Source: Candidatus Pampinifervens sinense (lineage in GTDB: Bacteria > Aquificota > Aquificia > Aquificales > Aquificaceae). Taken from it: a stretch of 64,000 nucleotides of DNA. This document shows positions 1,232 to 5,855 of this stretch, in pieces; positions within the stretch are counted from its first letter, which is position 1, and each line of letters opens with the position of its first letter. The DNA is taken from positions 1-64,000 of the forward strand of contig JAXSPP010000009.1 of the NCBI GenBank assembly GCA_037927135.1. The letters are read 5' to 3'. The position numbers and the translations under genes are program-made. The notes below the pieces were generated by a model. That model did no database searches. It worked only from the letters and a program-made list of their open reading frames with translations, and had not been told where the DNA came from.

Positions 1232-2349
1232 TAAGGGAAGGGAAGGTGCTTTTGGACCTTGAGCTTCCAGAGGTAGTATCTTCCAAGATGGAAGTCTTTT
1301 ACAACCCCCATATGAGGGAAAACAGGGACATAAGCCTTTTGATACTTTTGAGCCTGCCATACCAAGATGTAAGGATCTGTGATCCAATGGGAGCAAGCGG
1401 TGTAAGGCTTCTTAGAATGCTTTTGGAGACAAACAAGGTAAAGCTGGCAGTTTATAACGATATTAGTCCAAAGGCTGTGGAGTTCTTTAGAGGGCTCATA
1501 AGGAGCCATGGAGTTGAAGAGGAAAGAGTGGAGATATACCAAGAGGATGCCTGTATGCTCTTAAGAAAGTTAAGAAATTTTCACTATGTGGATATTGACC
1601 CCTTTGGATCCCCCGTGCCCTTTTTGGAAAGCGGTATACTCCCAGTGGCAAGGTATGGCATCCTGGCCATAACGGCCACAGACACATCAGTCCTCTCTGG
1701 CACCTACCCTAGCACATGCATAAGAAGGTATGCCTCCAAGCCTTTGCTTTCTGCCGAGTTTTACCATGAGGTGGGCATAAGGATACTCATAAAGAAGGTC
1801 ATAGAAGAGGGTGCAAAGCTTGACTATGCTCTGAGGCCCATATTCTCTTACTCTTATAGGCACTACTTTAGGGTCTTTTTCCAAAAGGACATAGGGCCCA
1901 AAAGGGCGGACAAGCTTTTGAAAAGGATAGGCTATTTACTTTATTGTGATGGTTGCCTATACAGAGAAGGTGTAGGTCTTGAATCTTTAAAGGATAGGTG
2001 TCCACATTGTGGCAAGAGGCTCCTTTGGGCTGGACCTCTCTGGCTTGGAGAGCTTTGGGACAAGGACCTTGTGGAAAATCTGTGGCAAATACGGGGGATG
2101 GTGGAGATATCCAAGGAAACAAACAAGCTTCTTAAGATAATAAGGGAGGAGTCTAAAATAAACAGCCTTGGCTTTTACACCATATCTTCAATGGCTAGGG
2201 CCTTTAGGCTTGGCCAGCCTCCACCCATAGAAAGGTTTTTGAAGGTCTTTGAGGGCGTGAGAACCCATTACACGGGAGAGGGCTTTAGAACAGCGCTTCC
2301 TCATGATGAGGTACTAAGGAGGGTCCATGAGCTACTACAAAGAGCTTAG
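1228..2349 (+). CDS. trm1: tRNA (guanine-26/27 N2)-dimethyltransferase, archaeal type
   Basis: VFYNPHMRENRD, SAM motif DPMGASGVR, DIDPFGSP, TATD, two CxxC pairs, GPLWLGEL. Confidence 0.95.
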   Translation: MIREGKVLLDLELPEVVSSKMEVFYNPHMRENRDISLLILLSLPYQDVRICDPMGASGVRLLRMLLETNKVKLAVYNDISPKAVEFFRGLIRSHGVEEERVEIYQEDACMLLRKLRNFHYVDIDPFGSPVPFLESGILPVARYGILAITATDTSVLSGTYPSTCIRRYASKPLLSAEFYHEVGIRILIKKVIEEGAKLDYALRPIFSYSYRHYFRVFFQKDIGPKRADKLLKRIGYLLYCDGCLYREGVGLESLKDRCPHCGKRLLWAGPLWLGELWDKDLVENLWQIRGMVEISKETNKLLKIIREESKINSLGFYTISSMARAFRLGQPPPIERFLKVFEGVRTHYTGEGFRTALPHDEVLRRVHELLQRA

Positions 2350-2860
2350 GGATTTTATACTAAAGATAAAGGGAGACTTTTTCCTTTCACCAAGGGACGC
2401 ATGGTTTTTAAAGTTCTTGGAGGAAGAAGGCTATCCATTGCCAGCGGTAAAGGAAGGCATAAAAAGGTTTTTCCTCTATTATCCTCCAGAGAAGAGGTCC
2501 AAGCTTCCCCTCTTTATGAGCTTTGAAGAGATAAAAAAAAGAAGGCAGAAGGCTATAAAAAGGCATTCGCAAGGTTGGAAGGAAAAGTTCTACCAGAGGC
2601 TTGAGCTTGCCAAAAGGTTCTTAGGAGAAAGTATTACCTACCAAGAGCCAAAGGATCAAGCACAGGCCGAGGAGATACTCCTAGGCTTGGAAAACAAAAT
2701 AGCCCAAAAGCTCTATGATTCACTTAGCAAGGAAGAAAAGATAAGCCTTATGAGGAAATTTTCAGTTTTTAAGGAAAACAAGGAACTTCTAAAGGCTATG
2801 ATAAAGAGGGAATTATTCAAAAGGGTAGGCCTAAAGGGCCTTTCCCTATTCTTGGACTGA
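2327..2860 (+). CDS. Hypothetical basic helical protein, possible DnaD/DnaB_2-like N-terminal domain
   Basis: 177-aa ORF overlapping the trm1 end, GGAGGG SD, host-like codons; LSPRD...YPLPAVKEGI pattern. Confidence 0.6.
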   Translation: MSYYKELRDFILKIKGDFFLSPRDAWFLKFLEEEGYPLPAVKEGIKRFFLYYPPEKRSKLPLFMSFEEIKKRRQKAIKRHSQGWKEKFYQRLELAKRFLGESITYQEPKDQAQAEEILLGLENKIAQKLYDSLSKEEKISLMRKFSVFKENKELLKAMIKRELFKRVGLKGLSLFLD

Positions 2861-2865
2861 TTCCA

Positions 2866-3120
2866 GGGTGTTTCAAAAATAGCCTGTGCTTTAACACAGA
2901 CTACCGCCCCTACCCCCTGCAGTAGGAGCTCGTGCCCATATCGGGTCTCCCCACAAGCCCCGAAAGAGAATATCTTTCAGGACAGAGAGGTCCCTAAGGA
3001 CCCTCTCAGGGGAGAGTGCGGTTAGCACCACTACCTTGAGAACTCGCCATGGATTTAGAGTATCCCCGCTTGTTCCATCCAGAGGCTGGGATACCCTCCA
3101 TGGCTCACTCCCAAGGCTTA
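2866..3120 (-). ncRNA. Putative omega-RNA (TnpB guide scaffold) overlapping the tnpB 3' end
   Basis: Abrupt GC-rich segment at the end of an AT-rich gene. Hairpins at 3047-3103, 2984-3007, 2960-2980, 2906-2929 and 2878-2905 include G-U pairs that favour the minus strand. Confidence 0.65.
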
Positions 3121-4354
3121 AAGACTTTATCAAAGCTTCTATTTCCTTTATGTGCTTAGCTTTCAAATAGACATTCTTTACCTTCTCTTTCACATACTCT
3201 TTTAATTCCCTTAACTCCTCTACGCTTAACTTTTTAAGAAGCCCCATATAGTTCTTTGGGATCTTTTCTTTTAATCCTAAGCCCCTTCTTGCTATCACAT
3301 AGGCAGAAGCTACATCCTTACTTACCATGTATTGTGGTGCATACTTTAACATGCCTATGATAGATGTGTAGGCTGGATTTACTTCTATCACTTCTATGCC
3401 ATTTCTTTTTGCAAGTAGTTTTATCCTCTCTAAGAGCTTTCTATAAGCAAAGTTATGCTGTATTCTTCTTACCTTCCTTCCAGAACAGTCCCCTCTTTTG
3501 TTTTTCTTCATTTTTAACTTCTCTATCACTATAGCCTTTCCCTTCTCTTTGGCTAAGCTTATAACCTTATGTGCGTATATCCATGTGTAATAGTCTCTCT
3601 TATTGCTATTGCCACTTCCTAGTTCTGGCATTGGCAACTCACCATAGCTTAAGAGATTTCCACATTCATCTGTTTCTGCCCAAGCTATGTGGTTTGGATA
3701 GGCGTTTAAATCTATGCCTATTACTCCATAATCCTTTGTAATCTCTACCTCTGGATATTCTTCCTCTATAGTGAAGTAGGCATAGATGTTGCCATCTCTT
3801 AGCTTTAGCTCCACTGTATAAGCCTTCCCAGAAAAGGCTAATTCTTTAATCTTCTCTATCCTCTCCCCCGCACTTATCAAGGCATATACATACTGCCTTT
3901 CTCCTGTGTTTATCCTAAGATATGTTCCATTCTCTCTTACCTCTATCCTTGTGTTTTGATTACCTTTTGAGTGTTTTTGTCCTATGGAATAGAGATTGCC
4001 TTTTCTTCTCTCTTGGAATTGGTTTTTTAATCTTTGATAGTCTTTCCCGTTTATATGTCTTTTTTGCAGTTTTCTAAAAATATCCTTTCCACCAAAGATG
4101 ACCTTCCTTAAGCTTTCTCCTTTCTCTTTTCTTACTTTCATCAAGGCTTGAGCTTTAACAATGGCTGAGTGTGAATATCTGGCATTTAGTCCAAACACAT
4201 TTTGAATTAACTTTCTTAAAGTGTTTATTTCCATGCCTTCCAAAAGTCTTTTGTAGGCATATCTCATAGCTGAAGACCATCTTCTCATAAGGTCTACAAC
4301 TCTCTCTTTGCCATGATGGTTTGACAATAAAAGCTTAGCGCTTATTGTTATCAT
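2891..4354 (-). CDS. tnpB: IS200/IS605/IS607-type TnpB-related RNA-guided endonuclease (no adjacent transposase)
   Basis: RuvC-I GIDLN (D215), RuvC-II VIEKL (E278), EVNPAYTS, RuvC-III SKDVASAYVIARRG (D347); N-terminal SSAMRYAYKRL; AT-rich relative to flanks. Confidence 0.9.
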   Translation of the reverse strand: MITISAKLLLSNHHGKERVVDLMRRWSSAMRYAYKRLLEGMEINTLRKLIQNVFGLNARYSHSAIVKAQALMKVRKEKGESLRKVIFGGKDIFRKLQKRHINGKDYQRLKNQFQERRKGNLYSIGQKHSKGNQNTRIEVRENGTYLRINTGERQYVYALISAGERIEKIKELAFSGKAYTVELKLRDGNIYAYFTIEEEYPEVEITKDYGVIGIDLNAYPNHIAWAETDECGNLLSYGELPMPELGSGNSNKRDYYTWIYAHKVISLAKEKGKAIVIEKLKMKKNKRGDCSGRKVRRIQHNFAYRKLLERIKLLAKRNGIEVIEVNPAYTSIIGMLKYAPQYMVSKDVASAYVIARRGLGLKEKIPKNYMGLLKKLSVEELRELKEYVKEKVKNVYLKAKHIKEIEALIKSLSLGSEPWRVSQPLDGTSGDTLNPWRVLKVVVLTALSPERVLRDLSVLKDILFRGLWGDPIWARAPTAGGRGGSLC

Positions 4355-4379
4355 CTTCTGTTATTTTAACATAACCGGT

Positions 4380-5855
4380 CTAGACTGACTCTGCCATGCT
4401 TATGGCCTTCATGAGGGCCTTTGCCTTGTTTACCGTCTCCCACCACTCTTTTTCTGGGTCCGAGTCGGCCACAATGCCAGCTCCAGCCTGCACAAAGACT
4501 TCATTTCCAAGGACCAGTGCAGTCCTTATGGCTATGGCCATGTCCATATTTCCATCAAAGGATATGTAGCCAACCGCACCCGCATATATGCCCCTTCTTT
4601 GATTTTCAAGCTCCTCTATTATCTGCATGGCTCTTACCTTTGGAGCTCCAGAGACGGTACCAGCGGGAAAAAGGGCCTTTAGCACATCCACCGCAGAAAG
4701 CCCCTCCTTTAGCTCACCTACCACATCGCTCACCATATGCATCACATGGGAGTACCTTTCCACCCTCATAAAACCTTCTACCTTTACGCTTCCTGGCTTA
4801 CTAACCCTTCCTACATCGTTCCTGGCAAGGTCCACAAGCATAAGATGTTCCGCTCTTTCTTTTTCATCGGCCAAAAGGTCCTTCTCAAGCTCCAAATCTT
4901 CTTCTTCGGTGAGTCCCCTTTTCCTTGTGCCCGCTATAGGCCTTGTTTCAATCCTTTTCCCTTCAAGCCTTACGAGCACCTCAGGGGAGGAGCCTATAAC
5001 TTTTAGGTCTCCAAGGTCCATGTAGTACATGTAGGGTGAAGGGTTTAAATACCTCAAGGATCTGTATATACTCTCAGGCTTTCCAGAAAAGTCCTTTTTA
5101 AAGCTTTGGGATAGCACCACCTGCACCACATCACCTTGGGCTATGTATTCCTTTGCCCTTTTGACTATGCTTAAAAATTCTTCCTTTGTAAAGTTGGAGC
5201 TCCATTCCTTTAGGTCTGGCTCCCTGCTTGGAAAGTGTATGGGATAAACACAGCTTTTGAAGATCCTCTCCTTTATACCTTCCATCATTCTCTTTGTCCT
5301 CTCATACTCTTCTTTTATGTTCCTCTCCCCATGGAGTGGTACTACTATACGTAGGCTACCACTCAAATTGTCATGCACCACCACAAGGTCGCTCATGAGC
5401 ATAAAAAGGTCAAAGACATTCAAAGGGTCAGGATTTTTGTCCTCTATGGGTTCATAGCACTTGATTATGTCGTAGCCCACATAACCCACCATACCACCCC
5501 AAAACCTCGGAAGCCTTGGATCTTTGTAGGGTCTGAAGGCCTTAAGAAGATCCTCAACGGGCTTTAAAGGATCCCTCTCTTCAAAGAGCTTTACCCTTCC
5601 CCTGTCGTATATGCAACCTATACCCCTTTTCCATGCATAGTAGAATCCAGAGGAGAGCACTATGAAGGAATATCTGCCCCACTTTATGCCCCCCTCTGCG
5701 CTCTCAAGAAGGAGGCTATACCTCCATCCGTCCTTCAACTTAAGATAGAGGGATAGAGGAGTTTCTGTATCCGCCATAAACTCTGCAAAGACAGGTATAA
5801 GGTTGTAATCCTTTGAAAGGGCCTCCACCTCTTCTATGCTAAGGCTTAACTTCAT
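4380..5855 (-). CDS. trpE: Anthranilate synthase component I
   Basis: LLESAEGG..WGRYSF, NPSPYMY, GSSPE, RPIAGT, EHLMLVDLARND, FPAGTVSGAPK, QAGAGIVADS. Confidence 0.95.
   Translation of the reverse strand: MKLSLSIEEVEALSKDYNLIPVFAEFMADTETPLSLYLKLKDGWRYSLLLESAEGGIKWGRYSFIVLSSGFYYAWKRGIGCIYDRGRVKLFEERDPLKPVEDLLKAFRPYKDPRLPRFWGGMVGYVGYDIIKCYEPIEDKNPDPLNVFDLFMLMSDLVVVHDNLSGSLRIVVPLHGERNIKEEYERTKRMMEGIKERIFKSCVYPIHFPSREPDLKEWSSNFTKEEFLSIVKRAKEYIAQGDVVQVVLSQSFKKDFSGKPESIYRSLRYLNPSPYMYYMDLGDLKVIGSSPEVLVRLEGKRIETRPIAGTRKRGLTEEEDLELEKDLLADEKERAEHLMLVDLARNDVGRVSKPGSVKVEGFMRVERYSHVMHMVSDVVGELKEGLSAVDVLKALFPAGTVSGAPKVRAMQIIEELENQRRGIYAGAVGYISFDGNMDMAIAIRTALVLGNEVFVQAGAGIVADSDPEKEWWETVNKAKALMKAISMAESV

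Follow-up and report, generated by a model that had tools for sequence, protein, structure and literature searches.

Results

A TnpB-related gene inside an inverted-repeat transposon

The window (the whole stretch of DNA analysed, 64,000 nucleotides of contig JAXSPP010000009.1 from Candidatus Pampinifervens sinense, assembly GCA_037927135.1) carries on its minus strand a transposon whose only gene encodes a TnpB-related protein. The insertion hit the overlap of two convergent genes, the end of trpE and ORF 2327-2860 (plus strand, 177 aa), the latter belonging to no Pfam or NCBIfam family and conserved beside trpE across the genus. The limits of the element were obtained from the empty site in relatives and from alignment of the ends. 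Specifically, the end of trpE overlaps the right flank in 17 of the 19 genomes of the genus, with a 10-mer present there once, as in genome G010, where the site reads GGCG GAATTAGTCC AAGAATAGGG; hence the element spans 4381-2864, with target duplications at 4391-4382 and 2863-2854. Because of the 10-bp duplication, both trpE and ORF 2327-2860 keep their 3′-ends. The trpE reading frame now closes on a TAG made of the last T of the duplication and the first AG of the element, with about two residues lost relative to G010 (…SV before the stop, compared with …LVQE). The features of the element and its borders are as follows.

2864..4381, minus strand: whole copy of the type A transposon; holds only the TnpB-related gene and is without the outer left inverted repeat found in sister copies
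2891..4354, minus strand: TnpB-related ORF, 487 aa (TIGR01766; invariant RuvC D215/E278/D347; AF2 fold)
4392..4396, minus strand: target motif and putative TAM as judged from sequence, TGGCA here and not TGTCA; across the family the consensus just 5′ of the duplication is (T)TGNCA
4382..4391, unstranded: left target-site duplication, reading GAGTCAGTCT on the minus strand; the present trpE stop codon is formed by the last T of this duplication and the first AG of the element
2864..2880, minus strand: right terminal inverted repeat ATTTTTGAAACACCCTG, 17 nt; contains TTGAAAC (2876-2870) and the 3′ strand of the proposed pseudoknot, CCCUG
2854..2863, unstranded: right target-site duplication, 10 bp, reading GAATCAGTCC on the minus strand; present once in the empty site of relatives
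2844..2863, minus strand: predicted guide GAAUCAGUCCAAGAAUAGGG, by analogy with the known TnpB arrangement; a 20-nt length is assumed, and similarity among copies stops at 2864

A second full copy, 89% identical to the one in the window, lies at C5:75235-76752 of the same genome, and the left ends of sister copies carry the right repeat in inverted form (GAGGBTGTTTCAAAAAT). The missing outer left repeat of the window copy may reflect a deletion, or an inner degenerate repeat may be used in its place. Duplication of the target is a property of the family: among 19 left-right pairs there were five 10/10 duplications, one element with 9/10 (counted from both strands) and one with 8/10, while none of 342 mismatched pairs reached at least 9. 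No second empty site was found for the C5 copy; synteny breaks there in G010.

The left flanks share a motif. In full-length elements with a duplication, G-N-C-A stands directly 5′ of the duplication in six of seven, and 20 of 47 left flanks, compared with 4 of 31 right flanks, have GTCAA at positions -16 to -12. Read as its reverse complement, the left-flank motif is TTGACA, which resembles a -35 hexamer. Among flanks with such a hexamer at this place, 13 of 35 also have at least five of the six bases of TATAAT at 16-18 nt, against a background rate of 2.2%, so that many of the targets are promoters firing away from the element.

Shortened forms of the element also exist. Miniature derivatives at C6:69934-70248 and C1:79227-79426 of the same genome (G000) consist of a left repeat and the last ~192 or ~115-118 nt of the RNA region described below, and a solo right end lies at C5:111512-111607. 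At one locus of G010 (C1:~661350-661380), exactly 10 bp separate the right end of a full element from the left repeat of another, truncated one, a tandem or nested arrangement. In genomes G089 and G101 the left-repeat pattern has 42 and 22 matches, compared with 4 and 3 for a control pattern, and the repeat-bearing loci contain only the TnpB-related gene or miniature derivatives; this excess suggests a burst of miniature inverted-repeat derivatives together with a second gene subfamily (~72% identity) that has the same ends.

A large RNA fold at the 3′-end of the gene

The region was originally predicted to be highly structured, and this held: the minimum free energy (MFE) of 3125-2864 on the minus strand is -130.7 kcal/mol, compared with -94.6 +/- 5.0 in 200 shuffles (z -7.17), with none of the 200 as good. 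The opposite strand folds to -99.5 kcal/mol (z -4.69), 31 kcal/mol worse. Every stem that had been named beforehand is present in the MFE fold, and an extra outer helix absent from that earlier list, 3117-3107/3043-3033, opens the structure; because the structure starts with this helix, we place the 5′ limit of the RNA at ~3117.

2864..3117, minus strand: proposed omega-RNA scaffold, ~254 nt, from MFE (z -7.17), covariation (46 sequences) and a synonymous-site freeze from about codon 401
3033..3117, minus strand: 5′ domain, comprising P1 (3117-3107/3043-3033) and a long hairpin (3104-3088/3066-3046)
3086-3085/3069-3068 and 3081-3080/3072-3071, minus strand: apical pairs of the 5′ domain; the loop encodes PLDGTS
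3016..3028, minus strand: short hairpin, 3028-3025/3019-3016; register refined from the MFE fold
2946..3015, minus strand: multibranch domain, closing helix 3015-3009/2952-2946
3006-2998/2993-2984 and 2983-2973/2967-2957, minus strand: inner hairpins of the multibranch domain, from MFE and covariation
2906..2929, minus strand: hairpin P9, 2929-2921/2914-2906; its loop 2919-2915 (CAGGG) is the 5′ strand of the proposed pseudoknot
2878..2905, minus strand: terminal hairpin, specific to type A elements, with the ORF stop TAA (2893-2891) in its loop; followed by UUUUUGAAAC and the flank

Rfam, searched with window positions 2000-5000 and four related loci, gave no relevant family. A set of 57 non-redundant 3′ regions was compared directly; it was drawn from the copies in the same genome, from genomes of the same order and from 80 loci found via the protein, and 46 of these sequences, carrying Aquificota, Bacillota, Thermotogota and Dictyoglomota labels, made up the covariation alignment once 11 near-duplicates were left out. 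Two end types occur among them, which we label type A (as in the window) and type B (ending in GTAACCAGG). The structure tested was the window fold without its terminal hairpin and without a long-range outer helix, and with one hairpin re-registered. The omitted outer helix, 3125-3118/2876-2870 of the MFE fold, is without alignment support.

Across the 46 sequences, 88.1% of cells are paired, compared with 41-50% when the partners are slid by 1-3 columns, a percentage that is inflated since the structure was derived from one of these related sequences; the two-sided changes are not so affected. The latter occur at 31 of 75 pairs and in 209 cells; shuffles gave 63 +/- 7 such cells, with none of 500 reaching 209, and the slid controls gave 41-64. 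For the unrefined structure the corresponding values are 86.5% of cells paired and two-sided changes at 28 of 76 pairs. An alignment of 3′-ends with a covariation test had been proposed along with the original prediction. By helix, the figures are as follows: helices 1-4 of the 5′ domain are 81-88% paired, with both sides changed in 13 of 32 pairs; the short hairpin 3028-3025/3019-3016 (helix 5) is 93.5% paired, with changes on both sides in three of four pairs, one of them GC in 24 sequences and CG in 17; in the multibranch domain, helix 6 is 95% and helix 9 is 92.8% paired, with four pairs changed on both sides; and hairpin P9 (helix 12) is 99.2% paired, with four of eight pairs changed on both sides. 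The terminal hairpin forms 7-11 pairs in 18 of 18 type A ends with differing inner sequence, including two or three G-U pairs in 17 of the 18. At 12 of the 75 positions of the tested structure G-U is more frequent than any other pair; therefore only the tnpB strand fits. RNAalifold run on the raw alignment recovered the fold in part only, owing to misalignment of the 5′ domain in 11 rows. The structure is real, conserved and strand-specific.

Extent of the overlap with the coding sequence

When the window gene was compared with 25 homologues, identical amino acids were encoded by identical codons at a rate of 0.30-0.59 over codons 1-400, and at 0.83, 0.85 and 0.70 over codons 401-420, 421-440 and 441-460 (window 3154-2975). 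Amino-acid identity in the overlap region is 0.5-0.7, and indels within it are multiples of three, so the frame is kept. Past ~2950 the picture changes, with frame-breaking indels, amino-acid identity down to 0.35 and stop positions that vary among homologues. In the predicted protein structure, residues 415-487, which correspond to the RNA region, have pLDDT below 50.

The predicted scaffold of ~250 nt overlapping the 3′-end of a TnpB-type gene is thus borne out both by compensatory changes and by synonymous suppression confined to the overlap. The accompanying proposal, that the RNA is dual-coded in the TnpB C-terminus, needs to be narrowed. It stands for roughly 3117-2950 (~55 real codons), the part where synonymous sites are frozen; it fails for the last ~20 codons, which are not conserved as protein and in the window copy are incidental read-through of RNA-coding DNA.

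The 3′-end, a guide-adjacent pseudoknot and the predicted guide

The RNA had been expected to end in TTGAAAC (2876-2870). Conservation in fact runs six bases further, and the conserved element ends …CACCCTG at 2864. All five copies in the same genome (that in the window, the full C5 copy, the C6 and C1 miniatures and the solo C5 end) finish with …GCTATTTTTGAAACACCCTG at this base, and nearly all matches in relatives stop there as well (13 of 121 genomes of the order have a match, all in one family). Since conservation stops at the right end of the transposon, the guide would be the host flank, as had been anticipated. The flank, at bases 2863-2844, was also correctly described as antisense to the end of gene 2327-2860; the overlap takes in the final 17 nt of this ORF.

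The last five bases of the element, CCCUG (2868-2864), are complementary to the P9 loop CAGGG (2919-2915), and we propose that the two form a pseudoknot. In type B the loop reads CYUGG and is complementary to CCAGG. Of the 52 rows, 51 are fully complementary (5/5), namely 15 of the 16 of type A and all 36 of type B, whereas cross-type combinations, used as controls, reach 5/5 in 0 of 592 and 32 of 666 cases. The pattern of sequence change suggests that a guide-adjacent pseudoknot co-varies between the subfamilies, and its position at the last five bases points to a functional RNA that extends as far as the element itself. A pseudoknot adjoining the guide is described for TnpB and IS607 reRNAs in PMC10711439.

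A zinc-finger-less TnpB/Cas12-like protein

The product of ORF 2891-4354 matches the NCBIfam family TIGR01766 ‘TnpB-related protein’ at 66.6 bits (cut-off 32) and, at its N-terminus, TIGR01765 at 60.6 bits. It scores 63.8 bits with NF040570 guided_TnpB, under the cut-off of 100, and 20.2 bits with Pfam PF07282 (Cas12f1-like TNB), under the cut-off of 26.3, the latter match covering profile positions 1-28 only. The RuvC D-E-D triad (D215, E278, D347) is invariant in 38 aligned sequences. Between E278 and D347 there is one non-conserved Cys and there are no CxxC pairs; therefore the C4 zinc finger expected between RuvC-II and RuvC-III is absent.

When a profile of 12 homologues was compared by sequence with solved structures, only Cas12f1 matched (E 0.008). 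An AF2 model built from the 38 sequences (pLDDT 76.7) was matched by Foldseek to Cas12f, Cas12k and TnpB, the top match being Cas12f 9i8y (E 3.3e-10), with TnpB 8exa at 2.0e-4 and TnpB 8h1j at 1.6e-4. According to this model, the protein is predicted to have the TnpB/Cas12 fold (WED, REC, RuvC). The group to which it belongs is large, with 2651 homologues at E <= 0.001 among 8000 candidates scored, and homologues 57-65% identical to it occur in Thermoanaerobacter, Caldanaerobacter, Caldicellulosiruptor and others. Given the guided_TnpB and PF07282 scores below cut-off and the missing zinc finger, guided cleavage in this clade is something that we assume.

Search for a mobilizing transposase

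What moves the element was sought in several ways. The genome itself has no match to Y1 TnpA (PF01797), and a self-BLAST gave no repeated transposase gene. Its only trace of an IS607-like serine recombinase is a fragment at C1:51979-52335 (34.6 bits) with two TAA stops. The search for DDE transposases covered two families: ISL3-type (PF01610) was found in none of five genomes, and DDE_Tnp_1 (PF01609, IS4/IS5-type) was found neither in this genome nor in the complete genome G010, which has at least seven copies of the element. In G089 and G101, DDE_Tnp_1 occurs as fragments only, not flanked by element ends. The IS607 TnpA genes of G010 and G089 were considered as mobilisers and rejected, as they belong to other TnpB types.

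The interiors of eight repeat-bearing loci contained no transposase candidate. A metagenome scan for the left repeat returned 119 stretches, and none of the 80 examined encodes the nuclease; one of the stretches (L204) has the full TTGTCA-N10-repeat context, without an ORF. At another locus (L161; G101:C95, at 1035 and 1402), two repeat-like sequences lie beside a DDE_Tnp_1 fragment and have only the first 8 bases (GGBTGTKT) in common with the element repeat, which points only weakly to an IS5-type transposase.

Discussion

Relationship to known TnpB systems

It is informative to compare this locus with the TnpB systems that have been described. Like the omega-RNA of ISDra2 and other IS200/IS605 elements, the RNA overlaps the tnpB 3′-end up to the right end of the transposon and has a guide that is predicted here to derive from the flank; the protein likewise combines the RuvC D-E-D triad with, in the model, the TnpB/Cas12f fold. 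The window system differs from these in having no Y1 TnpA, no zinc finger, a score below the guided_TnpB cut-off and no Rfam match. In addition, it has inverted repeats and a 10-bp duplication, neither of which occurs in IS200/IS605 elements according to the review PMC13565253.

There are also ties with IS607-family TnpBs and their reRNAs (ISXfa1; PMC10711439): close homologues (57-65% identity) directly follow an IS607 serine transposase. In Caldanaerobacter, for example, the homologue stands directly after an IS607-family serine transposase (NF033518, 230 bits), and there is no duplication in those elements. The IS607 reRNA as described in that paper also resembles the window RNA in its pseudoknot, formed by an internal loop with the last scaffold bases adjoining the guide. 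Whereas the type B relatives have the serine TnpA upstream and no duplication that characterize IS607 elements, the window element has neither of these characteristics: its subfamily has lost the serine transposase, and the last ~115 nt of the RNA are swapped for a 28-nt hairpin and the terminal inverted repeat, with the pseudoknot loop changed to match.

The frame around the gene has its own parallels. PMC10691335 and PMC10711439 report that TnpBs and Fanzors occur within DDE or inverted-repeat transposons and that solo TnpBs can be bordered by ends of this kind, and the latter describes Fanzor reRNAs that absorb TIR and TSD bases. Judging from these accounts (PMC10711439; Altae-Tran et al. 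2023, PMC10691335), the likeness to the window element is that of a nuclease inside a TIR and target-duplication element, with a guide RNA whose 3′-end absorbs transposase-recognised bases. The terminal repeats and target duplication typical of a DDE-type transposon are present in the window family; a DDE transposase with the same ends was not found in the search for two DDE families, nor a transposase gene in any element or genome checked here. The family is further set apart by its 10-bp duplication and by a strong left-end preference for TTGNCA or -35-like sites.

Loss of the zinc finger is described for some TnpB branches in PMC10691335, for example RIIIr-4, where, as here, RuvC-II and RuvC-III are no longer separated by a C4 zinc finger. 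In that branch, as characterized in the same source, RuvC-III has a histidine instead of the aspartate, whereas D347 is invariant in our sequences, which makes membership in RIIIr-4 doubtful. Because TnpBs and Fanzors in inverted-repeat transposons and the loss of the zinc finger are already published, the kind of system is known. A search of the literature on the family, on TIRs or TSDs with TnpB and on zinc-finger loss (supplements lay outside its scope) found no description of the window RNA or subfamily, and as far as this literature goes, the member in the window and its details are new. What is unusual is the transposon frame, with inverted-repeat ends and a 10-base target duplication, around a TnpB-type gene.

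A proposed guide RNA that would recognize the empty site

We consider it likely that 3117-2864 on the minus strand is the omega-RNA (reRNA) scaffold, that is, the predicted guide RNA with which the TnpB-related RuvC nuclease of ORF 4354-2891 would work. The RNA would be transcribed with the tnpB message or processed from that message; its first ~170 nt would double as protein codons ~413-468, and its last ~85 nt would form two hairpins and a single-stranded tail. At the end of this tail, CCCUG would pair with the hairpin loop directly before the guide, and the guide would be the DNA past the transposon end, from 2863 downward, composed of the 10-bp target duplication and the right flank. With a guide so composed, the unoccupied site, (T)TGNCA followed by the 10 nt that become duplicated and the flank, would be a full match next to the candidate TAM; the occupied site would match over 10 nt only. 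The nuclease would then cut empty alleles, favouring retention of the element. The use of the transposon target motif as TAM and of the duplication as guide start would correspond to the TnpB homing arrangement. Within this model we infer the guide length, the TAM, the production and binding of the RNA, the cleavage of DNA and the homing itself; four metatranscriptome runs gave no read mapping to 2300-4500, which bears on expression neither way.

How such a system arose invites speculation. One scenario, to which we give about an even chance, is that a cut-and-paste-type element took up a bacterial IS607 TnpB along with its guide RNA, that the 3′-end of the RNA was rebuilt around the new inverted repeat with the pseudoknot kept by compensatory change, and that the promoter-proximal target motif doubles as the TAM. 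A more radical scenario starts from the fact that the TnpB-related nuclease is the sole protein encoded by this inverted-repeat, 10-bp-duplication family, and holds that the nuclease, with its RNA, itself performs or directs integration next to TTGNCA. If true, a relative of RNA-guided nucleases would work as a transposase and not merely as a homing accessory, but we regard this as improbable.

Other explanations of the conserved structure

It is also worth considering that the RNA could be conserved and structured without being a guide, for instance as a 3′ element of the mRNA with a role in stabilizing or ending the tnpB message or in controlling how it is translated; such an element would end at the hairpin and U-run. 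The terminal hairpin (-14.3 kcal/mol) is directly followed by UUUUU and could terminate transcription ahead of the guide; a simple terminator scan did not have this hairpin and U5 among its matches. However, in both subfamilies an upstream loop co-varies with the last five bases, which lie past the U-run; such covariation would be superfluous for a terminator-only role, and a multi-domain fold of 254 nt conserved across phyla goes far beyond what a terminator needs. Since, furthermore, the protein encoded beside it is modelled with a TnpB/Cas12f fold, we think this explanation unlikely.

A structure at the right end of a transposon could instead act as DNA, with single-stranded hairpins recognised by a transposase, as at the right ends of IS200/IS605 elements, whose ends form DNA hairpins according to the account in PMC13565253. 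The position of the structured region would fit. Yet the genome has no Y1 transposase, the relatives use a serine recombinase that acts on double-stranded DNA, and type A elements have inverted repeats and a duplication. Nor would one expect a structure of 254 nt with G-U as the most frequent pair at 12 positions, or miniature derivatives that retain only its last ~115-118 or ~192 nt. Recognition as DNA hairpins is accordingly very unlikely to account for the fold.

The original prediction had also raised the thought that GAAAC recalls the 3′ handle of CRISPR repeats and might mark an intermediate in the transition from TnpB to Cas12. The resemblance is one of a pentamer only. GAAAC lies within the 17-nt terminal inverted repeat that is common to the left end of sister copies, the scaffold runs six bases beyond it, and the sister RNAs of type B, ending in GTAACCAGG, are without it. 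Comparison with the repeats of the host had been proposed, and two k-mer scans of its 12-contig, 99.96%-complete assembly found no CRISPR array with which to make it, so that the handle idea is now scarcely credible. The only match of a loose CRISPR-like scan was a 14-mer present three times at ~84-nt spacing (C7:53177-53345). Finally, chance folding together with ordinary protein-coding conservation, which the location inside an ORF with amino-acid identity of 0.5-0.7 might suggest, has a negligible probability in view of the z-score of -7.17, the two-sided compensatory changes at 31 of 75 pairs, the freeze of synonymous sites in the overlap only, and the covariation of the hairpins, which is kept in the non-coding miniature copies that retain the structure.

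Implications

If the RNA is the guide RNA that we predict, then a secondary structure backed by covariation, together with a guide-adjacent pseudoknot, becomes available for a large, thermophile-borne clade of zinc-finger-less TnpBs, and it would be directly useful for testing compact thermostable editors. The two end types would represent a natural module swap, in which the 3′ third of the RNA was replaced on the move of the gene from an IS607 to an inverted-repeat frame; that the pseudoknot was kept through a two-position compensatory change would mark bases that the nuclease needs. The arrangement would also be a bacterial case of the logic proposed for eukaryotic Fanzors, in which the target duplication becomes the start of the guide. 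One can further imagine that sites ~10 bp upstream of -35 hexamers, which the element prefers, could serve as safe harbour and TAM at once.

The module found at the 3′-end of type B RNAs has features of its own. Over its ~115 nt (for example at L042:2960-3079) it contains seemingly nested or pseudoknotted helices, GGCTTTCCC/GGGAAAGYC, CCGCC/GGCGG and CTGGGG/CCCCAG, followed by a terminal hairpin, and a shorter variant of it is present in loci of the L107 type.
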